Positions 1-11,898 of a stretch of DNA of 23,647 nt are shown here, in pieces. This stretch comes from a virus (taxonomy: Duplodnaviria; Heunggongvirae; Uroviricota; Caudoviricetes). The translations under genes were made by a program, and so were the position numbers. Numbering within the stretch: position 1 is the first letter of the stretch; each line of letters starts with the position of its first letter. The notes beneath the pieces were generated by a model. That model was not told the origin of the DNA, ran no database searches, and saw nothing but the letters and a program-made list of their open reading frames with translations. The stretch lies in the IMG/VR virus record IMGVR_UViG_2537561691_000015; one strand, 5' to 3'.

Positions 1-1002
1 TTACCCTCTATTGTCAAAAGGGTTTAATTCAACAGCAGCCTCTAAATGACCCGGAGCAAAATGCGCATAACGCATAGTCATTTTTATATCGCTATGCCCC
101 AGTATTTTTTGCAACACAAGAATATTTCCGCCCCGCATCATAAAATGACTAGCAAACGTGTGACGTAGCACATGAGTTAATTGCCCATCAGGGAGCTCTA
201 TCTTCGCTCTCTTAATTGCAGCGTCAAAAGCCTCATAACATGGTGAAAATAGCGCTCCTCGTTTTTTAGGAAGCATAGCCTGCAATTGAGGTGAAATCGG
301 TACAGTGCGGTTCTTCTTTCCTTTAGTTTTAACAAATGTGATTCGACCGGGCAGTACTTGAGATTGCTTTAATCCTTCTGCTTCACTCCACCGAGCACCA
401 GTCGCAAGCCCAATACGGACAACAACCCCCAAATCTTTATTCCGTGACTCATCACACGCAATCAAAAGGCGTTCAATCTCATCTACATACAGAAACGCCA
501 GCTCCTTTTCTTCCTCACGAAACTTGCGAATTCCAGTCAGGGGGTTTTCACCAGACCACTCCCCAAGGCGCTTCAGTTCGGCAAAAACAGCATGTAGATA
601 TGACTGCTCGCGATTAACGGTTGCTTCACTAAGTTTTTTCTTCCCCTTGGGATTCCATTCTCCTGATAGCCTTCTTTCCCGATAAGTAGCAAACATATTT
701 TTGTCAAACTGAGAAGCAAATGGATCTCCCAGCCTAGAACAAATCGCCTCAAGTTTGACTTTGCGCTCTGCACCAGAGGACAAGGTTTTGCCGTACATCT
801 CAAACCAACGAGCAATCAACTCAGAAAGACGAGGACCAGAACCATCTTGAAACTCGTCTCCAACTCTACTATTCATTAAACGGCGCTCATAAGAGAGCGC
901 CTCACTTTTTGTCGCAAACTGTTTACGAATGCGTTTTCCCGATGCTCCGTAGGGATAACATTCGCAAAGCCATTTACCTGATGGAATCTTACGAACCGAC
1001 AT
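1..1002 (-). CDS. int: Tyrosine integrase (P2 Int-like), complete, stop codon at window edge
   Basis: 333 aa ORF; C-terminal catalytic box 'LRHTFASHF...GHSDIKMTMRYAHF' typical of tyrosine recombinases; last gene of the repressor operon as in P2. Confidence 0.9.
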   Translation of the reverse strand: MSVRKIPSGKWLCECYPYGASGKRIRKQFATKSEALSYERRLMNSRVGDEFQDGSGPRLSELIARWFEMYGKTLSSGAERKVKLEAICSRLGDPFASQFDKNMFATYRERRLSGEWNPKGKKKLSEATVNREQSYLHAVFAELKRLGEWSGENPLTGIRKFREEEKELAFLYVDEIERLLIACDESRNKDLGVVVRIGLATGARWSEAEGLKQSQVLPGRITFVKTKGKKNRTVPISPQLQAMLPKKRGALFSPCYEAFDAAIKRAKIELPDGQLTHVLRHTFASHFMMRGGNILVLQKILGHSDIKMTMRYAHFAPGHLEAAVELNPFDNRG

Positions 1003-1007
1003 TTTTG

Positions 1008-1355
1008 TTACTTATCACATAAATCAAATGCAGCCTTAGTGACGTCCCCCAGATTCTTTTTTAACCCAGGGGCGGCATCATTATCTAGCCAAAATGGATT
1101 ATTGTTATCTAACGGTAACGCACCAAATGTTTTACCTTTTATTCGAGCCAAACCTGTAAGCGCATATAACTTATTATCGTCAAAATTCATCACATAAGGA
1201 TTACCATCAAGACACTGCAATTGAACCTCATCTGTATTAAATGGCCATACTCCATTGAAACTCTCACGTTCAATAGTTTTAAAAGGCATTGCGACGGCGG
1301 AAAAAGAAAACATAGATAAAAAAGCAACTAATAGTTGAACCTTTTTTACTTTCAT
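1008..1355 (-). CDS. Small secreted/periplasmic protein of unknown function (cargo in lysogenic operon)
   Basis: 115 aa; N-terminal signal peptide 'MKVKKVQLLVAFLSMFSFSAVA'; two Cys (possible disulfide); GAGG ribosome-binding site upstream; stop 5 nt before int start. Confidence 0.6.
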   Translation of the reverse strand: MKVKKVQLLVAFLSMFSFSAVAMPFKTIERESFNGVWPFNTDEVQLQCLDGNPYVMNFDDNKLYALTGLARIKGKTFGALPLDNNNPFWLDNDAAPGLKKNLGDVTKAAFDLCDK

Positions 1356-1384
1356 GTCATTGCCTCAATTTAGCTCAAGTAAGA

Positions 1385-2035
1385 TTACAAATTAAAAAAC
1401 ATCCTAGAAATGGCTCCGCCTACCAAAACCCCTACGCAGATAAAGAATATTATTTCTTTTGGATAAAATCGGATTAATTCTGAAGCACGAAGGCGGACTT
1501 CTGGTAAGGTCGAATTCTCTGTGTGGCTTGATACCGATTGTTGCTCTAACCACGACAATGCAGACTGTAACTGAGAACGAGTAAGATCGTTTAAACGTCC
1601 TGTACCGAAATTGATATGGCAATACCGCAGAAGTTTTTGTCGAAGTCCACAGTCTTCACTGTTACGTAATAATAAACTTACAAGAGTCTTACAGGCATCA
1701 TGATCTTTACATCGCTCAAGCATTGCATGCAGAAAACTCTCCGCTGTTTTATATTGATTTATTGTCATATCATCAATACCAGCTACACCAATCTCCGCAT
1801 GTACTTTTTGCCAAATAATAAACGCTTCAGTATTGCTAGCTTCTGCAATAGCAGCAACCAAGCTATTTAGCTCCTTACGCTGTGCCTTAAGCAAAGGGCG
1901 AGCGTCATCATCATTATTCGAAGGGATTGCGATATTGACGGTATGAGAACCATCATATCGCTCTATCTGAATATTCTTTTCGTGAAAATCACGCCCAGCA
2001 ACGCGATTGTTTGAACCGTTTGAGTTGACGGCCAT
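1385..2035 (-). CDS. Tail-anchored membrane protein of unknown function (cargo in lysogenic operon)
   Basis: 216 aa; single C-terminal hydrophobic helix 'IIFFICVGVLVGGAISRMFF'; strong RBS GGGAGGTGA before ATG; starts 15 nt after repressor stop; N-terminal motif 'NNRVAGRDFHE' echoes the repressor C-terminus. Confidence 0.6.
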   Translation of the reverse strand: MAVNSNGSNNRVAGRDFHEKNIQIERYDGSHTVNIAIPSNNDDDARPLLKAQRKELNSLVAAIAEASNTEAFIIWQKVHAEIGVAGIDDMTINQYKTAESFLHAMLERCKDHDACKTLVSLLLRNSEDCGLRQKLLRYCHINFGTGRLNDLTRSQLQSALSWLEQQSVSSHTENSTLPEVRLRASELIRFYPKEIIFFICVGVLVGGAISRMFFNL

Positions 2036-2978: not shown

Positions 2979-3329
2979 ATGAAAAAACACGCTAATAATC
3001 CATACTCCAAATTTCGTAATGGCGTAGAACGCCATATACACCACGTCGCTACCAGTGCATCACGTAGTAACAATCGCTATAACCTGAACGAGACGCACGC
3101 AACACCAGATGGGCACGCTGTAAAACAAATCGGCGAACACACCTGGCTGATTGAGAAAGCTGGAATAGTGGTTCACAGATGCTCACGCAATCCGTTTACC
3201 GGAAACCGCATTTTTGCATTAAGCAACGGCGATAATCAGTTCGGGCAGGATTTTACATTGTACGAAGCACTGCGCACAGTCGATCGTTTGCTTCGCGGGC
3301 AAAGTTTTATTAAACAGGCTGATTTATAA
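2979..3329 (+). CDS. Hypothetical early-operon protein
   Basis: 116 aa ORF with ATG start, co-directional and tightly spaced in the early operon. Confidence 0.5.
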   Translation: MKKHANNPYSKFRNGVERHIHHVATSASRSNNRYNLNETHATPDGHAVKQIGEHTWLIEKAGIVVHRCSRNPFTGNRIFALSNGDNQFGQDFTLYEALRTVDRLLRGQSFIKQADL

Positions 3330-3339
3330 CAGGTGCTTT

Positions 3340-3618
3340 ATGACTAAAGACCATGCACAAGGTGTATTTATCCGCTTTATTGATTTTCGCGGTGAACTGT
3401 TATTACGCGCATCAGCTATTGACGGAGTAGTTCCATCTGAAAAAAATGCAGCTACCTACGTTTATCTGAACGGTACGCGCCTGACAGTAGAACTTCCGTA
3501 CCAGACCGTTCGCGAAATAATTAACGAAGCTGAAAAAGCTCGTCAGGTTAATGGCGATGAACCCTATATCGAAATTATCTGCATGGATTCAGAAGCTGAA
3601 ATTCAGAAAGCAGATTAA
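3340..3618 (+). CDS. Hypothetical early-operon protein
   Basis: 92 aa ORF, ATG start, RBS-like AGGTG upstream. Confidence 0.5.
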   Translation: MTKDHAQGVFIRFIDFRGELLLRASAIDGVVPSEKNAATYVYLNGTRLTVELPYQTVREIINEAEKARQVNGDEPYIEIICMDSEAEIQKAD

Positions 3619-3629
3619 AGGGCGTTGCG

Positions 3630-3872
3630 ATGGGCAAAGAATATAAGACTCTCATAAACAAAGCACTTGAGCGTTTTTATTTTCGCTTAAGTGCATCAGG
3701 TACTCATGCTGAACGTGCAGCCCGTGACTCATTAACCAGGGCAATCCGGAGTCTGTATGACGTGGCTTTTTACGCTGATGATCTGGATGCACTTAACGAA
3801 CTTTCCGAGCTGATCTGTGCCGCAGAATGCGGGGAGCATATTGAACCGTATAAGCTGGGGAATATTGCATGA
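3630..3872 (+). CDS. Hypothetical early-operon protein
   Basis: 80 aa ORF, ATG start 11 nt after the previous stop. Confidence 0.5.
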   Translation: MGKEYKTLINKALERFYFRLSASGTHAERAARDSLTRAIRSLYDVAFYADDLDALNELSELICAAECGEHIEPYKLGNIA

Positions 3873-3982
3873 GTATATTTATCTCATGGCTTGTTCTGAT
3901 TATTTCGGTGGTCTGCGCCATTGGGATTATGCGAATTATTCGTTCAGTAAAAAAGATTGACCGCTTTTTCACTGGCGAATAA
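3869..3982 (+). CDS. Small hydrophobic peptide (37 aa), possible small membrane protein
   Basis: ORF MSIFISWLVLIISVVCAIGIMRIIRSVKKIDRFFTGE read directly; start overlaps upstream stop (ATGA); below the length cut-off of the ORF track. Confidence 0.3.
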   Translation: MSIFISWLVLIISVVCAIGIMRIIRSVKKIDRFFTGE

Positions 3983-4596: not shown

Positions 4597-4986
4597 ATGA
4601 TTGACGCTCATGACTTCACAAGATGGGTGCGCACACAGGACACCCGTCTGGCTCCCGTTCTTCAGGGATTATTTGATCTCTACATCCGTAGTCGTGACAA
4701 CAGAGCACGCACTACAAAACCGGAGAATGCAGACACCCTTTATTTCACAGTAGACGACTGCTACCGCGTGGACTTAACACCACACGGGCTGGCGTTGCGC
4801 TGCCTGACACCGCATGGCGAATCACTGCTGGCGTATTACGACTCCCCGACCTCCGTATTTGCGGCAATGCTGGCGCATCACACTGCTGGCGGGTGTGCCT
4901 CGCTGAGTGAATACACCGCTGAATTTAACCGCCTTTCCACCCTCTTCTCGCAGGAGTGGCAGCGCGTGACGGGATACCAGCCATGA
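4597..4986 (+). CDS. Hypothetical early-operon protein immediately upstream of the replication gene
   Basis: 129 aa; its stop overlaps the ATG of gene A (ATGA). Confidence 0.5.
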   Translation: MIDAHDFTRWVRTQDTRLAPVLQGLFDLYIRSRDNRARTTKPENADTLYFTVDDCYRVDLTPHGLALRCLTPHGESLLAYYDSPTSVFAAMLAHHTAGGCASLSEYTAEFNRLSTLFSQEWQRVTGYQP

Positions 4987-7748
4987 GTGAGTTTGCATGG
5001 AGCTGGAATGAACCACGGCCAGCCATTGATCCGGACAGATTTACGGAGCGCAGGCAGGAAACTGAAACCGAGCTGCAACGCGCCATCCGTTACTACCTTG
5101 AGGCGGACAAAAAGGCCCGTAAAGAACAGGAAGCGAAGGAGGAAGCCTTTTTCGCACAATCCACCGTGGGTAAAAAACTCATGGCATCCCTTGAGGAAGC
5201 CGGACAGCGTGAAAAGCTGGCACAAAGCATCATCAGCAAGCGTCAGGCAACAGAACAAGACCCGGTGGCCCGTGCTTTTGCCACACTGAAGGTGCTTCCC
5301 GTTTATCTGCGTGAACCTCTGAGCCGCCACCTCTCTTTCCTGCGCAAAAAACAGGAATCCGATCGTCAGAAAGGCAAAAAGAGCTGGCAGGCTGAACGCT
5401 ACGCGCGCGGAACCCTGCGCAAAATATTCGTACGTCTGGACCGCACCGACAGCCGTTGGCTGACACCGGGTTATCGGTCCCTTGCCGGACGTGAACGCCT
5501 GGACGATTTGCTTTACCTGCCGCAACTCAACAAACACCAGATACAGACGCTGGCCACCATGACGGCGGCGATGTTCAGCAGCACCTTCGAAAAACTCTGC
5601 GATGGTTTTGGCGCGACCGATGGCGAGCTGACCATGGATGTAACGCTGAAGGCGTATCAGATGCTGGCCCGCATGGCGTTACACTTGCACGCCATGCCTC
5701 CGCATTATGACGCACTGACAACAGACAAAGACCGGAGGAACGAACCGGACACAGAACTGCTGCCGGGCGCAATCCTTCGCCTGACCTGTGCGGAATGGTG
5801 GAAACGCAAACTGTGGCTGTTACGTTGCGAGTGGAGAGAAGAACAACTCCGCGCCGCCTGTCTGGTTTCCAGAAAAACATCGCCCTATTTGAGCCAGGAC
5901 GCGTTAAGCGAGTTTCGCGCACAGCGCGAGAAAACACGCGATTTCCTGAAAAGTTTCATGCTGGAAAACGAAGACGGGTTCACGATTGATCTCGAGACGG
6001 TGTATTACGCGGGAGTAAGTAACCCGGTTCACCGTAAGGCAGAAATGATGGCCACCATGAAGGGGCTGGAACTTCTGGCCGAAGCCCGTGGCGACAAAGC
6101 GGTGTTTCTGACTGTCACCTGCCCGTCAAAATACCACGCCACAACAGAGAACGGTCATCCGAATCCCAAATGGAACGGGGCCACCATGCGCGACTCCAGC
6201 GATTACCTGGTTAACACGTTTTTTGCGGCGGTCCGCAAAAAACTGAACCGCGACGGTCTTCGCTGGTATGGCATCCGCACGGTGGAGCCTCACCATGACG
6301 GCACCGTGCACTGGCATATGATGGTCTTTGCTCATCCGGAAGAAATCGACAGCATCGTGGCCATCACCCGCGATATTGCCATTCAGGAAGACCGCCACGA
6401 GCTGGGCAATGATATTACTCCGCGCTTTAAGGCGGAGTATGTCGACGGCTCAAAAGGCACACCAACCAGCTATATCGCGACCTACATCGGAAAGAACCTG
6501 GACAGCCGCGCCGTGGATGGCATCGACCCGAAAACGGGCAAGCCACGCGTTGACCACGAAACCGGAAAATCAATGGCCGAGAGTGTGGAGCGCGCCATCG
6601 GCTGGGCGCGCCTTCATCGGGTCCGCCAGTTCCAGTTCTTTGGCATCCCCTCCCGTCAGGTGTGGCGTGAACTGCGCCGCCTTGCCAGCCAGATGGCACG
6701 CAACCCGGAAGGCCCGCAACGACTGAAAGATGACGCAATGGATGCGGTACTCGCTGCCGCCGATGCCGGGTGTTTTGCCACCTACATTGAAAAACAGGGC
6801 GGCGTACTTGTTCCACGCAAAGACTACCTGATTCGCACCGCCTACGACCTCGCAGATGAGCTGAATGATTACGGCGAACAGAGCGTACAGATTTACGGGA
6901 TCTGGTCACCACTCATCGGGGAATCCTCCCGTGTGTGCACGCATCCGGATAACTGGAAACTGGTAAGACGTAAACCGGAAACGGAAGACAGCGCCCGCGA
7001 AAATGGTTTTGACCTTCAGGGCGGCCCTGCCGCCCCTTGGACTCGTGGCAATAACTGTCCCCGTGTACAGGAAACGGACAACAACGGGACAGAACAGCCG
7101 GAAGAACGGCCAGCACCGTGGCCGCGGCTTCCTGAAGGCGTTGACGTGAATGAATGGATGCGCTCACTGAAACGGCACGAACGCCGGGCACTGATGCGTT
7201 CGCTGCGTGACAAACAGGCAAAAAACAGCAGTGATGAAATGCAGAACTGGACACAGAGCCGCAAACAGCCACAGCCTTTGCCTGATAACCACGAGTTACT
7301 CGCTAAAGAATGGCGGGAGGCTGCTGAATCTCTCGGCCTGCATATCGGTGAACAGCAGATGCAGCACCTGTTACGAGGCGGCAGTCTGTACGTTGGCGGC
7401 AGCATCATTGCACCGCAGGGATTTGAAATTGTACGCAAACAGGATACCCGCCCGGACAGCCGAATCACGCAGCTCTGGCAACGCCTGAGTCGTAATCACG
7501 GCGTAAGCAGCACGGAGATCCGCCATAACCCGGTCGCCAGCTATCTGGAACAACTAGAGGCATCAGACCCTGAAGCCGCCGCACGCCTGGCATCCACACT
7601 TCAGCAAGACCAGAACACCATGAAAACACCCGTTACCGTACTTTCTGACATGCTGCGCGCCATCCGCGACGCAGAGCACGCACAGAGAATCAGTGAAACC
7701 ACTAAACATGCTCGCAAAAAAATCAGTTTATTGCATCGAACACGATAG
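4983..7748 (+). CDS. A: Rolling-circle replication initiation endonuclease (P2 gpA family)
   Basis: 921 aa from ATG 4983 (the track's 4956 start is GTG); HUH-type motif 'VEPHHDGTVHWHMMVF' closely matches my recollection of P2 A; last gene of early operon as in P2. Confidence 0.9.
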   Translation: MSEFAWSWNEPRPAIDPDRFTERRQETETELQRAIRYYLEADKKARKEQEAKEEAFFAQSTVGKKLMASLEEAGQREKLAQSIISKRQATEQDPVARAFATLKVLPVYLREPLSRHLSFLRKKQESDRQKGKKSWQAERYARGTLRKIFVRLDRTDSRWLTPGYRSLAGRERLDDLLYLPQLNKHQIQTLATMTAAMFSSTFEKLCDGFGATDGELTMDVTLKAYQMLARMALHLHAMPPHYDALTTDKDRRNEPDTELLPGAILRLTCAEWWKRKLWLLRCEWREEQLRAACLVSRKTSPYLSQDALSEFRAQREKTRDFLKSFMLENEDGFTIDLETVYYAGVSNPVHRKAEMMATMKGLELLAEARGDKAVFLTVTCPSKYHATTENGHPNPKWNGATMRDSSDYLVNTFFAAVRKKLNRDGLRWYGIRTVEPHHDGTVHWHMMVFAHPEEIDSIVAITRDIAIQEDRHELGNDITPRFKAEYVDGSKGTPTSYIATYIGKNLDSRAVDGIDPKTGKPRVDHETGKSMAESVERAIGWARLHRVRQFQFFGIPSRQVWRELRRLASQMARNPEGPQRLKDDAMDAVLAAADAGCFATYIEKQGGVLVPRKDYLIRTAYDLADELNDYGEQSVQIYGIWSPLIGESSRVCTHPDNWKLVRRKPETEDSARENGFDLQGGPAAPWTRGNNCPRVQETDNNGTEQPEERPAPWPRLPEGVDVNEWMRSLKRHERRALMRSLRDKQAKNSSDEMQNWTQSRKQPQPLPDNHELLAKEWREAAESLGLHIGEQQMQHLLRGGSLYVGGSIIAPQGFEIVRKQDTRPDSRITQLWQRLSRNHGVSSTEIRHNPVASYLEQLEASDPEAAARLASTLQQDQNTMKTPVTVLSDMLRAIRDAEHAQRISETTKHARKKISLLHRTR

Positions 7749-7793
7749 AAATATAGAGCTAAGGCCGCCCTAGGAATAAGGAGGCCTTGAAAA

Positions 7794-8603
7794 TCAACCT
7801 ATCTTCTTATGAAGTAAAATTAATTTCTGTATTAATTTGGAATGAAACATTGATATATCAGAAATTCTTATTTCATTAGGCGAGTCTATATGATTGGAAA
7901 CTTCTTCCTCCAAGGAGTCACAAATACTTTCTAGATTTTCAATATCTGCATTTAATTCTGGAAAACTATTAAACAAATATAATGAATCCCGTAACTCTCC
8001 TAGTTTTGGTAAAAGAGTATTACTGAATACACTAAGAAACTCCTCTTCTGATAATGCCATGGAGTTTTTAAAACTTTGCACAACATCGAATGCCAACCCA
8101 TTAATTTTAGGCATAATTACTTCTCTTACCCAATACCCTTCATTAATAGCTTCTTTACGTTCTTTTCTATGTTGAACACAAGGAATAACAAAGGATGAAA
8201 CTAAAGCAAATAAAGAGATGCCAATAGAAATCCACTCTGGACCATTTTCCGGAACCTTTACAATATTATATATATCATAGGAATTTGGAACATCTTTGAA
8301 ATAATTAGCAAATAAATCTTTTTTGTTATCCCTTGCCAGAGATAACTTATGAAAGGTGTCGTTTGCCTTTTCACAAAACATCAAGCCATCATTCGGGTTT
8401 CCGGATAACAAAAACGGTGATGATATACCACTAAGTCCTGAATCGGAAATATAAAAAGGCGTGTTTGGATAAAGTGATTCATTACATTCAATGTTTTCTT
8501 TATTGGAAAAATCTGTCACAGAGCAAGCTGCGGGGAATATAAAAAAAATGACAGACAGCGCTGTCATTTTGATTTGAAAAATATTTTTAAAAGAAGGGAA
8601 CAT
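7794..8603 (-). CDS. Membrane protein with N-terminal signal peptide and one internal transmembrane helix (third gene of cargo operon)
   Basis: 269 aa; N-terminal 'KNIFQIKMTALSVIFFIFPAACS' signal-like; TM 'WISIGISLFALVSSFVIPCV'; AAGGAG RBS; overlaps upstream gene by 17 nt; AT-rich codon usage. Confidence 0.6.
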   Translation of the reverse strand: MFPSFKNIFQIKMTALSVIFFIFPAACSVTDFSNKENIECNESLYPNTPFYISDSGLSGISSPFLLSGNPNDGLMFCEKANDTFHKLSLARDNKKDLFANYFKDVPNSYDIYNIVKVPENGPEWISIGISLFALVSSFVIPCVQHRKERKEAINEGYWVREVIMPKINGLAFDVVQSFKNSMALSEEEFLSVFSNTLLPKLGELRDSLYLFNSFPELNADIENLESICDSLEEEVSNHIDSPNEIRISDISMFHSKLIQKLILLHKKIG

Positions 8604-8931
8604 TTTTATGTAAGCCTCTCCTTACAGCTCTATCTAATTCAGAAAGCATACCTTCTTTATATTCACGACCATCAAGTACAGTGCGACTATAAAATTCGCT
8701 AGGCGAAGAAAATTTCGGCAAAACCGTTTCAAGCATACCTAGAAAGTATGAGCTTGATACAACAATTCCCTTGGGGATCAATAGATATAATCTATCATTA
8801 CTGGTTGTGCAAAATTTCCCTATATTAAAGTAATCATAGGCCTGGCGCCCATTAGAACGTCCAGCAAAAAGTTTCTTGTTACTATCTTTTACTAACTTAT
8901 TGAAATCTATGGTGATGTCAGCCATTTTCAT
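8587..8931 (-). CDS. Small STAS-like (anti-sigma-antagonist / DUF4325-like) protein, second gene of cargo operon
   Basis: 114 aa; 'IDF...GIVVSSSYFLGMLETVL' resembles the SpoIIAA/STAS phospho-serine region; starts 10 nt after gene-1 stop with a GAGGA RBS; family call from memory only. Confidence 0.55.
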   Translation of the reverse strand: MKMADITIDFNKLVKDSNKKLFAGRSNGRQAYDYFNIGKFCTTSNDRLYLLIPKGIVVSSSYFLGMLETVLPKFSSPSEFYSRTVLDGREYKEGMLSELDRAVRRGLHKNVPFF

Positions 8932-8941
8932 GTACCTGTCC

Positions 8942-10321
8942 TCAAGTTCGCTGGGTGGCGTTTTCTGGTAGAGGAAAACGAATATTGATCATAACTCCAG
9001 GAAATCGAGCATCCTTCATACGCTTAAGATAGTTGCGATCCGGTTCAGATTCAAGCCCTACATCATTAAAAGGGTAAGTAAAAATGTCACTTTCCTCGTC
9101 ATTAACCAACCTTTGCTTTAATTTATATGATCCATCAAAGTTAATATGAGTACTACCAGATATTAAAGTCATTTTTATCCCACCTTTAATATCTCTTCCC
9201 ATTTTTTTAAGATTATCATGCATATCTTGAAATAACTTCAATAATTCAATTGTTCCGGTGCCAGAACTGTCAGTTTCTTTCTCGTTTTTACAACTCACCC
9301 GCCCTTGCAAGGCCGCTACTGTTGTTAATCCTTCCTTAAACATACCCTTTTTCTTAATATGCTTATTTATGTATGGATTAACTTGTTGACTTAATGAAAA
9401 ATGATCCTCAGGTAAATTATCAAAAGTTTCGCTGATAGTTTTCCCAAAATTGAAAACAGCCAACTCACATATGGGGTTTCGTACGTTATTATTAACAAAA
9501 CCTCTCAAATACCAGCGTGGGCGTTGCTCTAACCCACAATGCCGCTCCGCATTATCAAGGAGTTCCCCCATGCAGGAAGTTAAATGCTTTTCTGCCTCAT
9601 GTACAAGTTTTAAATTATGATCATTTAAGCATTCGTTTATGTATGCGGTAAATTTTTCAGCAGTGACATTTTTTCTGTCATGGGCAAAGGCAGAAGCATT
9701 CTCCTTTCCGATACTATCAGCAGAGAAGATTCGTTTCTTCGGATTCGCTTTTTTCGATGCTTCAGTAGAGTCCAGAACTTTACCTGGTGCAGCATTACTA
9801 ATCTCTTTTACAAGCCCGACATCCCTGATAATTTCAAGATACTGTTCATCTTTAGGGTAGATACCATTAATCTGAATCATCGTATCTTTGAAATTTATAT
9901 TACTTTGCCTTGCTGCTGTAAGAGCAACACCTAATAGACACTCAAGACCAAGACAGTGTTTTTTGTTTTTCTTGTAATCAAAAATATATGATTTCCATTT
10001 ACCTCTTGCAATTAATTTTGTGGCTGCACTAATAAATAGCAGAGATTTCTCTGGATTGTCATATAAGTCAAAATATTTAGGTATTAATATCTTCTCTGCG
10101 TCACGACGAAGAATTGATGAGTCATACTCTTTTATAATCGATATATTTTCAATGAACGTAGCGACTTGGTTTTGGACAGGAGTTGTTTCATCGGAAAAAC
10201 GAAGACTACCATTTTTCTCTTGCGCAGGCTTTTTTTTCTTAGCTCTCTCAACGCTACGAAGAAATCGCAACCATCCACGTAAAAAGGTTCTTTTAGAATC
10301 TTCTTTATTGATTTTTTTCAT
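8942..10321 (-). CDS. GHKL/HATPase_c-like ATPase-domain protein (SpoIIAB/RsbW-type N-box), first gene of cargo operon
   Basis: 459 aa from ATG 10321 (the track's 10417 start is TTG and lies inside phased repeats); N-box-like 'GELLDNAERH' (E-x3-N-A-x2-H) and G2-like 'DSSGTGTIELL' in the C-terminal half; N-terminal ~230 aa basic region of unknown function; AT-rich. Confidence 0.6.
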   Translation of the reverse strand: MKKINKEDSKRTFLRGWLRFLRSVERAKKKKPAQEKNGSLRFSDETTPVQNQVATFIENISIIKEYDSSILRRDAEKILIPKYFDLYDNPEKSLLFISAATKLIARGKWKSYIFDYKKNKKHCLGLECLLGVALTAARQSNINFKDTMIQINGIYPKDEQYLEIIRDVGLVKEISNAAPGKVLDSTEASKKANPKKRIFSADSIGKENASAFAHDRKNVTAEKFTAYINECLNDHNLKLVHEAEKHLTSCMGELLDNAERHCGLEQRPRWYLRGFVNNNVRNPICELAVFNFGKTISETFDNLPEDHFSLSQQVNPYINKHIKKKGMFKEGLTTVAALQGRVSCKNEKETDSSGTGTIELLKLFQDMHDNLKKMGRDIKGGIKMTLISGSTHINFDGSYKLKQRLVNDEESDIFTYPFNDVGLESEPDRNYLKRMKDARFPGVMINIRFPLPENATQRT

Positions 10322-10400
10322 TTCCAAATGTTCCTGCAAAGTTAACGTAGCCCACAAGGCGCTAAGTATACTTTCTGCTATATTTTTTTCACTATACAAA

Positions 10401-10427
10401 TGCACAATAGTGCACAAATTTGCACAA
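10401..10427. promoter_or_regulatory. Three helically phased direct repeats TGCACAA (starts 10401, 10411, 10421) upstream of the cargo operon; candidate operator/activator site
   Basis: Seen directly; exact 10-bp periodicity; on the operon strand they read TTGTGCA and sit just upstream of -10-like TATAGT and TATACT hexamers. Confidence 0.4.
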
Positions 10428-10801
10428 TTTTTTTGAACGACTTTTTGCCCTTCCGGCCCGCATGGTGGCTGGATCCGTCAAGGATCCGTGCGTGCACAAA
10501 AAAACGCATTTTTTCTGCGCGCAGGTGACGGGGGAACAGCCCGCGTTTCAGGGGGTAAATAGCATCCCCTGAACGATGTCGCAGCGACACAACAGAATGG
10601 CTGTATTTCTCACGCTGAGCGTGAAAAAGACGTGAGGGCTTTTGATTTGATGGGGTGAAAGGTAAGGCCGTCAAAATCGCACTGAGACGGCGAGAACATG
10701 CAGTCAACGCGGTGGGATTGCGTAAGAGTCTGACTGTCGATGATGGCAATCAGCAGGAAAGCGTCGTGAAATTATCTGACTGATACAGGAGCTGGAGAGT
10801 C

Positions 10802-10824
10802 GGGGCATAAATTTTTTATGCCCC
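10802..10824. terminator. Stable hairpin (10-bp stem GGGGCATAAA/TTTATGCCCC) just downstream of portal gene Q; putative terminator
   Basis: Perfect inverted repeat seen in sequence, about 30 nt past the Q stop on the minus strand; no clean U-tract, so function is uncertain. Confidence 0.35.
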
Positions 10825-10851
10825 GGCGAAGCAGCAGACAAGCGAAGCGCG

Positions 10852-11898
10852 TCAGGATGTGGGCTGGGTGTCTAACAGTGCGTAAGGGTTAAAGCGGATC
10901 ACCTCTTCGCCAAGCCAGTCATTGATGTGCTTCATGGCCTCCATGACGGGCATCAGCTCGTTAATTGCGTAAACCCGCGCGGCCTTCTCCACATCACCAA
11001 ACGCACTTTTTTCGCCCGGCATCGCCCCCATCAGTTGCGGCGGAACGCGGTGCGCAGCCAGCACATCATCACGGGATGCCGCCTTAACATTCATGAACTC
11101 ATCTTTTGCGGTGATCTGCTGGAACGGCAAAATTTGCACCCCTTCTTTGCCCCCGTTGGGCGCATGAATGAGCACGTTTTTAAATGCACCACCACCACGC
11201 GCACCCTGTAACGTTTCTTTCAGGGAGTCCATGCTTTCGCGGTTTACCTGCGCTGCACCGATGTAGATGATGCACCCGGCGTGGGATCCGTTGTCGTAGT
11301 ACAGTTTTCTGAACATGTCCGCCGAATGAGAAAGGCTGGCCGAGAGTAATGCGCCAAGATATTCCGGCATGCCGTAGATTTCCTGGTTAATATCCGGATT
11401 CATCAGGTGGCACACTTTGCCAGGGCGAAACTGGAACGCGTCCTTGCCATCCTGCACATACCACCATGATTCAAGATCGCTTCCGCGTCGCATGTATTTC
11501 GCCAGGGCGTGCCGTAATTTAAGCGGTTCGCCGAGCATATTGCTCCGAAGCTCAAGGAATGCGTTACCGAACACAAACCAGTCCAGCGCCAGCGCCGAGA
11601 AATCCTGCCGGGAAAGCAGCGGGTGCGGGATGTAGCAACCGAGTAATACATTGCGCTTAAAGTAAAGCGCAGACTGATGCCAGGACGTTTGCCGGGCGGC
11701 TCTTGCCAGACCGTACCAGTCCACCGGGGTTTCATACCACCGCCCGTTATCAGCACAGTACATATTGTCCAGCAGGTCATGCCCGGTCAGGCGATAAGGA
11801 CCATCAAATGTGAATGCACTGAGCGATGATTCTTTCCTGAGCGCATCAGCGAGATCAATGCGTGAACTCATGCGCACTTTTTTATTTTTTCTGCTCAT
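10852..11898 (-). CDS. Q: Portal protein (P2 gpQ-like)
   Basis: 348 aa (P2 Q about 344 aa as I recall); start overlaps P stop (ATGA); canonical position next to large terminase. Confidence 0.9.
   Translation of the reverse strand: MSRKNKKVRMSSRIDLADALRKESSLSAFTFDGPYRLTGHDLLDNMYCADNGRWYETPVDWYGLARAARQTSWHQSALYFKRNVLLGCYIPHPLLSRQDFSALALDWFVFGNAFLELRSNMLGEPLKLRHALAKYMRRGSDLESWWYVQDGKDAFQFRPGKVCHLMNPDINQEIYGMPEYLGALLSASLSHSADMFRKLYYDNGSHAGCIIYIGAAQVNRESMDSLKETLQGARGGGAFKNVLIHAPNGGKEGVQILPFQQITAKDEFMNVKAASRDDVLAAHRVPPQLMGAMPGEKSAFGDVEKAARVYAINELMPVMEAMKHINDWLGEEVIRFNPYALLDTQPTS

Follow-up and report, generated by a model that had tools for sequence, protein, structure and literature searches.

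The locus and its three genes

The stretch analysed here, referred to below as the window, is a 23,647-nucleotide piece of DNA from the virus record IMGVR_UViG_2537561691_000015 (IMG/VR; Caudoviricetes) and is part of a P2-like Escherichia coli prophage, in which a low-G+C island between the replication endonuclease gene gpA and the portal gene gpQ carries a three-gene cassette identical to that of strain WS1933D. Our subject is the last gene of the cassette, gene 3, for which an earlier note on the same DNA had proposed a signal peptide, one transmembrane (TM) helix and a role as an envelope sensor or a membrane effector. From sequence, and by analogy with characterised systems, we give about an even chance to gene 3 being the membrane-acting effector, or toxin, of an anti-phage cassette formed by the three genes. 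The features on which this depends are the following.

7750-10400: cargo island of 2.65 kb and low G+C between gpA and gpQ, the P2 'hotspot'
8942-10321, minus strand: gene 1, kinase-like, 459 residues from the RefSeq start
8587-8931, minus strand: gene 2, a basic protein of 112/114 residues
7794-8603, minus strand: gene 3, a membrane protein of 269 residues (ATG start at 8603; in-frame ATG, Met13, at 8567)
8537-8570, minus strand: conserved mRNA hairpin over codons 12-22 of gene 3, containing the Met13 AUG and a palindrome

The G+C content of the island is 33-38% versus 52-60% in the surrounding prophage, and its content is three minus-strand open reading frames (ORFs), genes 1, 2 and 3, each a 'hypothetical protein' in RefSeq, which annotates integrase, Cox, gpA, portal, terminase, capsid and lysis genes around them. 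The gene 3 ORF is real, as the earlier note had it: RefSeq gives the same coding sequence in an identical E. coli locus, the ORF is intact in homologues of 38-61% identity, and in 21 complete E. coli genomes it is present undisrupted, full-length, free of insertions or deletions and at least 99% identical. A further 11 E. coli genomes carry one of two divergent alleles, of 69% and 68% nucleotide identity, so that the alleles together are found in 32 of 5426, and the trio was intact at the same hotspot in both of the divergent-allele loci that were examined. The first ATG of gene 3 overlaps the end of gene 2, whose stop codon ends at 8587, by 17 nucleotides, and this overlap recurs in every P2-hotspot homologue examined, which bears out the tight physical coupling to the upstream gene that had been proposed.

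Topology and export signal of gene 3

Hydropathy and charge distribution agree in making gene 3 a membrane protein and not a soluble one. Hydrophobic segments span residues 13-26 and 123-143 (19-residue Kyte-Doolittle peaks at 17-24 and 131-136), two Lys precede the first of them, five Lys or Arg lie within residues 144-160, and residues 144-269 are acidic, with 21 Asp or Glu versus 14 Lys or Arg and an isoelectric point (pI) of 5.07. Because of these segments and charges, the protein is predicted to have an N-terminal export signal, about 95 residues outside, one TM helix and 126 residues inside. This keeps the order of segments given before and corrects their lengths, which had been put at about 120 residues outside and about 105 inside. 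The parts of gene 3, all on the minus strand, are as follows.

8523-8603: residues 1-27, export signal with a basic n-region, a hydrophobic stretch and Ala-Ala-Cys27 (from hydropathy and charges)
8268-8522: residues 28-112, hypervariable outside segment with no confident fold, dispensable in distant relatives
8082-8267: residues 113-174, the most conserved block, including the TM helix
8175-8237: residues 123-143, TM helix
7800-8141: residues 155-268, cytoplasmic four-helix bundle (predicted structure)

Cys27 is nearly invariant in the close alignment (A1), and 21 of 38 family members have [AGS]-Cys at the equivalent place, usually followed by Ser or Thr at +2; because of this the export signal of the window allele is probably of the lipoprotein type. 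The region reads F-P-A-A-C27, in which Pro at -3 is atypical of the lipobox [LVI][ASTVI][GAS]C, and in the remaining 17 of the 38 relatives the signal either ends as for signal peptidase I or is absent, and thus lipidation, as judged from these sequences, is not a requirement across the family. Were the signal peptide cleaved at Cys27, the same mature protein would arise from the ATG at 8603 or that at 8567. A lipoprotein signal combined with a C-terminal TM helix is the layout of phage T1 gp11, and one could suppose that gene 3 resembles a unimolecular spanin, anchored in the outer membrane through Cys27 and in the inner membrane through its TM helix, which disrupts or fuses both membranes when released. 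The lipobox-like Cys, a residue at +2 that is Ser and not Asp in most members, and the position of the TM helix towards the C-terminal side are consistent with this idea; however, the Cys or the whole signal peptide is missing from the 17 relatives just mentioned, gene 3 carries an extra cytoplasmic part of 126 residues, it lacks a PHROGs match, and the lysis genes of the prophage, for holin, endolysin and LysC, are located elsewhere, apart from the cassette. We regard the spanin-like reading as barely credible. A role as the spanin or holin of the prophage itself was rejected as well, because of these lysis genes elsewhere.

The conserved core of gene 3 lies in and behind the membrane

The gene 3 family is small, comprising 21 clusters in a word-indexed search of 5.8 billion proteins and 35 proteins at E <= 0.001 in an exhaustive profile search of 1.84 billion representatives, and no Pfam domain was found in any of its members. 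Conservation is distributed very unevenly along the protein. In the same homologues identity to the window protein is 12-41% over residues 28-112 versus 49-71% over residues 113-269, and the highest conservation runs from N113 to V174, where NIVKVPExGPEW is followed by the TM helix and then by QHxKERKEAINEGYWxREVIMPKINGLAFDV. Within the helix the residues S126, S130, A133, S137 and P141 form an invariant face, and the periodicity of conservation peaks at 100 degrees (0 of 5000 permutations reach as high a value); a face of small residues is the expected product of helix-helix packing in the membrane, and we infer such packing here. Across the wide family of 35 sequences only W158 and P165 are invariant, with A133, S137, R160 and V162 nearly so. 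Four distant members (P0138, P0139, P0141 and P0142) have no signal peptide, and only some 15-30 residues precede their TM helix.

In the AlphaFold2 model of gene 3, made from an alignment of 14 sequences, the TM helix extends over residues 123-152 and a four-helix bundle over residues 155-268, with a predicted local distance difference test score (pLDDT) of 84-91 over most of it. The score is below 50 over residues 1-116, which is weak evidence, as the low confidence in the outside segment is also explicable by so shallow an alignment. A Foldseek search of the model against the Protein Data Bank (PDB) returned generic four-helix bundles only, the best at E 0.14. Judged from conservation and the predicted structure, then, the functional core of gene 3 is the TM helix, the membrane-proximal motif SIxDxFWxREVIxP and the cytoplasmic bundle, and the outside segment is probably an accessory, fast-evolving and unstructured tether, not a sensor domain.

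These observations bear on two other readings of the protein. In the first, gene 3 is the input of the cassette, a sensor or anchor that tethers the gene 1-gene 2 pair and reports an envelope event (phage DNA entry, depolarisation or lost contact with the outer membrane), upon which gene 1 executes the response by phosphorylating or sequestering a host or phage target. Consistent with this are its receptor-like topology, in which one TM helix connects a segment outside to a helical bundle in the cytoplasm, the rapid evolution of the outside segment, which could reflect an arms race, and a weak Foldseek likeness to the TM-proximal parts of NarQ/Tar-type sensors. However, the matches in question are the generic bundles at E of 0.14 or above, and the extracytoplasmic 'domain' on which a sensor was first proposed is hypervariable, without a confident fold and absent from distant relatives that keep the TM helix and the bundle, and in that form the proposal is not supported. 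We consider the sensor reading unlikely, though well worth weighing, and return to it below. The second reading makes gene 3 a superinfection-exclusion lipoprotein or membrane protein that acts through its outside segment, with genes 1 and 2 serving for regulation only. Proteins such as Cor, Llp and SieA block receptor use or DNA injection directly, and gene 3, an envelope protein of prophage origin that is probably lipidated and whose outside segment evolves fast, would not be out of place among them. Yet this segment is the least conserved part of gene 3 and is missing in some relatives, the cytoplasmic bundle is the part conserved, gene 3 has no PHROGs match to any phage family, and exclusion proteins are not known to be obligatorily linked with a kinase-like partner; we find exclusion highly improbable.

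A conserved hairpin at the start of gene 3

The earlier note had drawn attention to a 12-bp palindrome, GACAGCGCTGTC, in the 5' coding end of gene 3. It is present at 8554-8565 as reported; as a 12-bp palindrome it has no significance, since three such palindromes occur in the window versus 5.8 +/- 2.2 in shuffled sequences and its central bases vary among homologues, and for these reasons we reject it as a meaningful feature alone. It is, however, part of a larger structure that is conserved, an mRNA hairpin beginning 17 nucleotides downstream of the gene 2 stop codon, with the form 5'-AAAAUGACAG-(6-nucleotide loop)-CUGUCAUUUU followed by more U; the stem is a 10-bp inverted repeat, AAAATGACAG / CTGTCATTTT, and a T-run follows it. 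Eight loci with gene 3 proteins of 38-61% identity have all 80 of 80 stem positions paired, and compensatory double changes in 6 of the 10 pairs; none of 500 shuffles reaches the observed pairing and covariation, and controls slid along the alignment pair at only 39-71%. Predicted stability lies between -9.9 and -14.0 kcal/mol in seven loci. Among degenerate codons for invariant amino acids, both of the two within the hairpin use the same codon in seven loci, versus 5 of 64 elsewhere (Fisher P 0.01, on small numbers). In one distant variant (L009) the start AUG of gene 3, the sole possible start and only 3 nucleotides after the gene 2 stop, lies in the 5' arm of a hairpin as well. This pattern suggests that the hairpin with its U-tract probably limits gene 3 expression. 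It fits a leaky intrinsic terminator or attenuator that separates gene 2 from the bulk of gene 3; alternatively, it fits a structure that sequesters the start codon and would make translation of gene 3 dependent on ribosomes finishing gene 2.

Genes 1 and 2: a kinase-like protein and a candidate STAS partner

The 59 clusters of the gene 1 family come from Enterobacterales, Aeromonas and Vibrio, and RefSeq and all homologues start the protein at the ATG at 10321 (MKKINK..., 459 residues); the mechanical ORF list runs it to a TTG at 10417 (491 residues). Its predicted model (pLDDT 81.9, predicted template modelling score 0.83) has anti-sigma-F factors as its best Foldseek matches throughout, with weak E-values, and because of these matches we read gene 1, on the model, as a basic N-terminal helix followed first by a STAS-like and then by a SpoIIAB/RsbW-like GHKL domain. 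In the latter the motifs are ELLDNAERH, G354-x-G356 and FPGVMINIRF, with E253, N257 and H261 of the first and both Gly of the second invariant. The strand of the G1 box, aligned to DxGxG of the kinase VapK and of a P4-encoded relative, reads FNFGKT, in which Asn291 (window 9449-9451) replaces the Asp in all 29 family members.

Gene 2 encodes a small basic protein (pI 9.4) with a family of 33 clusters, in which F8, L19, F20, G22, N25, G26, V55, S58, S59, Y60 and G63 are invariant; the motif is VVSSSYFLGM, and S58 and S59 are unchanged in 21 sequences. Searches of Pfam and of PDB sequences, profiles included, gave no match, and a library scan of its 112 residues gave no DNA-binding domain; nor was profile-profile comparison significant with the STAS-like domain of gene 1, with VapS or with the P4 DUF4325 protein. 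Table S5B of Rousset et al. 2022 (PMC9122126) gives it the label DUF4325. Because the Ser-Ser pair is invariant at the expected place and because of this label, gene 2 is a plausible STAS-like (DUF4325-like) partner or antitoxin. The STAS-like description given in the earlier note thus agrees with the invariant serines and has no significant sequence match behind it. A further observation concerns Glu127 (about 9941-9943), invariant in the STAS-like domain of gene 1, which a non-significant profile alignment sets opposite Ser59 of gene 2; this Glu could be a built-in 'phosphomimetic', and we mention it as a lead only.

The trio travels together among defence genes

In all 13 loci examined, from Escherichia, Klebsiella, Citrobacter, Raoultella, Rahnella, Aeromonas, Vibrio and two metagenomic contigs, the order is the same, gene 1 (about 450 residues), gene 2 (about 110) and a membrane protein (200-280), the third genes of distant loci being divergent members of the gene 3 family; gene 3 was not seen without genes 1 and 2 in any of the 13. 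E. coli, Klebsiella, Citrobacter, Raoultella and Rahnella carry the trio in the P2 gpA-gpQ hotspot, and another P2-like element has it between the CI repressor and the integrase. Outside gpA-gpQ the neighbours include type I, II and IV restriction genes: in an Aeromonas prophage the trio adjoins a Com/methylase pair, an SRA-HNH enzyme, NERD and HipBA, in Vibrio parahaemolyticus it adjoins HsdR and AAA_15/21 genes, and on a metagenomic contig it lies between HicAB, Mrr_N, Eco57I/XhoI and Phd-ParE genes. The 13 loci therefore show recurrent placement in defence islands and prophage hotspots. The cassette is infrequent, with only two related loci in species-representative genomes searched with the close alignment and none in 50,697 phage records.

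Some single loci deserve a remark. In the Rahnella hotspot (L015:1512-4784) the trio stands beside the gene for a 1090-residue KAP-family NTPase, and in the hotspot of one E. coli strain (L018:2212-3484) beside a ParM/StbA-type partition pair. A 3147-bp contig labelled Planococcaceae bacterium UBA3378 (DEQA01000158.1) encodes a gene 3 that is 99% identical to the E. coli protein, most likely through contamination or mis-binning and not as a Firmicutes occurrence.

The context also bears on whether the cassette serves defence at all. It could instead be prophage cargo of another kind, for maintenance or control of induction or for lysogenic conversion of the host envelope, with gene 3 as a regulated membrane protein. 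P2-hotspot cargo does include partition systems and a cytolethal distending toxin (PMC9122126), partition-type genes adjoin the trio in the E. coli locus just described, and genes associated with CapK/CapS, which pair kinase and STAS domains as set out below, may mediate general stress responses (Chambers et al., PMC13373217). On the other hand, the trio is also found outside prophages, in defence islands between restriction-modification and toxin-antitoxin genes; its low G+C and its rare, patchy distribution (the 32 of 5426 E. coli genomes) are typical of defence cargo; and with 35 relatives only among 1.84 billion representative proteins the family is rare everywhere. We judge a role apart from defence decidedly unlikely.

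Comparison with known systems

The gpA-gpQ region is a hotspot and reservoir of anti-phage systems with experimental support (Rousset et al. 2022, PMC9122126), and the cassette is already catalogued there: P2-hotspot system 19 of Table S5B, with the labels 'HATPase_c' and 'DUF4325', 155 loci and '1 TM in protein 3', has these three proteins as its representatives, with two substitutions in protein 3. The new elements here are the putative membrane effector and the hairpin. At residue 142 the window allele has Cys (8176-8178) where the representative of Rousset et al. has Tyr, as do most sequences of the family alignment, and at residue 108 the window allele has Tyr (8278-8280) where theirs has His. 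A possible identity of the trio with the validated 'hp + hp + hp' system of the same study (Rst_3HP, pFR109), whose proteins are listed in Table S2A at more than 330, more than 350 and about 226 residues, was rejected, as the sequences differ by eye and PADLOC gives no match. We found no literature carrying the accessions of the trio proteins.

The closest characterised analogue of the cassette is VapKSC, which protects against phage Bas42 (Chambers et al., EMBO J 2026, PMC13373217). In that system VapK, a STAS-GHKL protein, is proposed to phosphorylate Ser48 of the 116-residue STAS antitoxin VapS and so release the PIN toxin VapC, and in the related CapK (HTH-STAS-GHKL) and CapS (STAS with a winged helix-turn-helix) the pair regulates neighbouring immune operons; single-stranded DNA activates the kinase through a conserved aromatic residue, W68 in CapK and F54 in VapK (Chambers et al.). 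Using the VapK and VapS sequences of the authors' deposited model, we find the same operon order of a kinase-like protein, a STAS-type protein of about 115 residues, for which gene 2 is the candidate, and an effector, for which gene 3 is proposed, with similar protein sizes, a similar position of the conserved Ser and a location in or near defence loci. Similar to VapK, gene 1 joins in its predicted model a STAS-like domain to a SpoIIAB-like GHKL domain, and its ELLDNAERH aligns with EIYANSFEH; Ser58 of gene 2 aligns with Ser48 of VapS, both alignments being colinear but not significant. There are clear differences as well. In place of a PIN nuclease the third gene encodes a TM protein whose model shows a four-helix bundle; VapS matches Pfam DUF4325 (E 2.7e-17) whereas gene 2 does not; gene 1 is about 150 residues longer than VapK, with a basic N-terminal helix and Asn for Asp in the G1 box; at the position aligned to VapK F54 it has CLGxE and no conserved aromatic, in an alignment that is not reliable; and gene 2, with only 112 residues, lacks the winged helix-turn-helix match of CapS. 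A tblastn search of VapS against plasmids gave one match, too few for a DUF4325 profile. By sequence, then, the cassette shares the layout of VapKSC and is not demonstrably a member of its family.

Compared with SpoIIAB-SpoIIAA and RsbW-RsbV, the cassette has no sigma factor, has STAS-like and kinase-like domains fused in gene 1, has a membrane protein as its third partner, and is mobile cargo and not housekeeping. A two-gene relative without a membrane protein, again labelled 'HATPase_c' and 'DUF4325', is found at 9 loci as P4-hotspot system 69 (Rousset Table S1B, PMC9122126), and its first protein is colinear with gene 1 over 195 columns (hhalign P 0.017). Such a pair in P4 satellites may carry its own output, which speaks for the sensor reading of gene 3. 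On the other side, that reading leaves the cassette without a recognisable effector, and in the characterised analogue the kinase itself, activated by single-stranded DNA, is the sensor. Among single- or few-TM effectors of abortive infection (CBASS, Pycsar, retron, and the P2-hotspot system '2TM + 1TM + TIR'), the common feature with gene 3 is a small membrane protein that is encoded last in an operon of defence type and is presumed to kill the cell or arrest its growth (a view expressed in PMC9122126), and we found no sequence relation or specific fold relation to them. An N-out/C-in orientation with an export signal and a cytoplasmic part of 126 residues is unusual among effectors of this kind.

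The surrounding prophage

Four further features flank or accompany the cassette.

4956-7748, plus strand: ORF of the replication endonuclease gpA
10852-11898, minus strand: portal gene gpQ
7759-7773, minus strand: weak terminator-like hairpin directly after the gene 3 stop (consensus scan only)
10365-10392, minus strand: promoter-like hexamers 5' of gene 1 (matches of this kind are as frequent in the region as expected by chance)

An Rfam search of 7600-10900 gave no relevant match, and only the right-hand 450 bp adjoining the portal gene is common to sequenced P2-like phages. Elsewhere in the prophage, a protein with an SPFH domain is annotated in the early region (window 3124-3954; L001 4425-5255), and a second low-G+C patch (35.8%) lies near window 1001-1500; both may be accessory cargo.

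Discussion

Taken together, the topology features of gene 3, its pattern of conservation, the constancy and context of the trio, the fold of gene 1 in its predicted model and the covariation of the hairpin are what we observe, and they suggest a working model in which gene 3 is the effector of the cassette. In this model an N-terminal signal would direct export of the gene 3 protein, which would probably carry a lipid at Cys27 and be anchored by one TM helix in the inner membrane with its acidic bundle in the cytoplasm. In the uninfected cell the basic, STAS/DUF4325-like gene 2 protein, produced in a coupled manner from the overlapping gene, would keep the bundle inactive; upon infection the gene 1 protein would sense a cue and then either phosphorylate Ser58/Ser59 of gene 2 or capture gene 2 by partner switching. 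Freed gene 3 might then self-associate through the small-residue face of its TM helix, damage the inner membrane and abort the infection, and the hairpin with its U-tract at codons 12-22 would limit its expression to a lower level than that of genes 1 and 2, or make it depend on translation of gene 2. Toxicity, the gene 2-gene 3 complex, phosphorylation, the trigger and the anti-phage activity are the elements of this model that we infer.

We favour an effector because the trio is kept together, lies in the hotspot and in defence islands and has a precedent in VapKSC; because constraint in gene 3 falls on the TM face, the post-TM motif and the bundle and not on the outside segment; because the charges of gene 2 (pI 9.4) and of the cytoplasmic part of gene 3 (pI 5.07) are complementary; and because TM proteins in known defence systems are generally taken as suicide effectors (PMC9122126). 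The original alternative of 'envelope sensor or membrane effector' thereby tips towards the effector, which fits better because of where the constraint falls and because gene 3 occupies the toxin position of the VapKSC operon, and the sensor half is not supported.

Several results weigh against an effector in an anti-phage cassette. No protein of the trio has a PADLOC, Pfam, NCBIfam or PDB sequence match; scans with the first three and with PHROGs gave nothing usable (PHROGs returned two matches, of unknown function only, for genes 1 and 2 and none for gene 3), and the PDB searches covered single sequences and profiles. Comparison of genes 1 and 2 with VapK and VapS was not significant by hhalign (P 0.15-0.16), and by hmmsearch 332 and 379 of 2000 shuffles score as high. 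The trio sequences are not among the systems cloned and tested in PMC9122126. A single TM helix with a generic four-helix bundle, as modelled, has no recognisable toxic or enzymatic feature, and the pair of genes 1 and 2 can probably work with another partner, because the P4 variant has no membrane protein. Kinase activity of gene 1 is itself uncertain because the invariant Asn291 replaces the Asp of the GHKL G1 box, and on this sequence the protein may be a non-catalytic binder or use nucleotide differently.

A more speculative variant, improbable in our view, joins the lipidated N-terminus to the bundle in one mechanism. Gene 3 would be an envelope-spanning tripwire, with its lipidated N-terminus in the outer membrane, its TM helix in the inner membrane and the outside segment of about 95 residues as a flexible, fast-evolving tether between them. 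A mechanical or enzymatic disturbance of the envelope by the phage (tail penetration, local peptidoglycan digestion or membrane separation) would reach the bundle by way of the conserved TM helix and post-TM motif and so change which partner the kinase-like and STAS-like proteins choose. If true, the cassette would defend the cell by sensing phage entry at the envelope, with a partner-switching module as the means.

If gene 3 is the effector, the kinase/STAS control logic of VapKSC would be a swappable module that can be joined to a membrane effector or to a nuclease, a P2-hotspot cassette that is fairly common, with 155 E. coli loci in one survey, would be added to the anti-phage systems, and gene 3 would be the founding member of a new membrane effector family with a rare type-I-like topology. 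Its core is sharply defined, consisting of one face of a TM helix and the motif SIxDxFWxREVIxP, and the covariation-supported hairpin in its 5' coding end would offer an example of how a prophage under-expresses a potentially lethal gene relative to its controllers.

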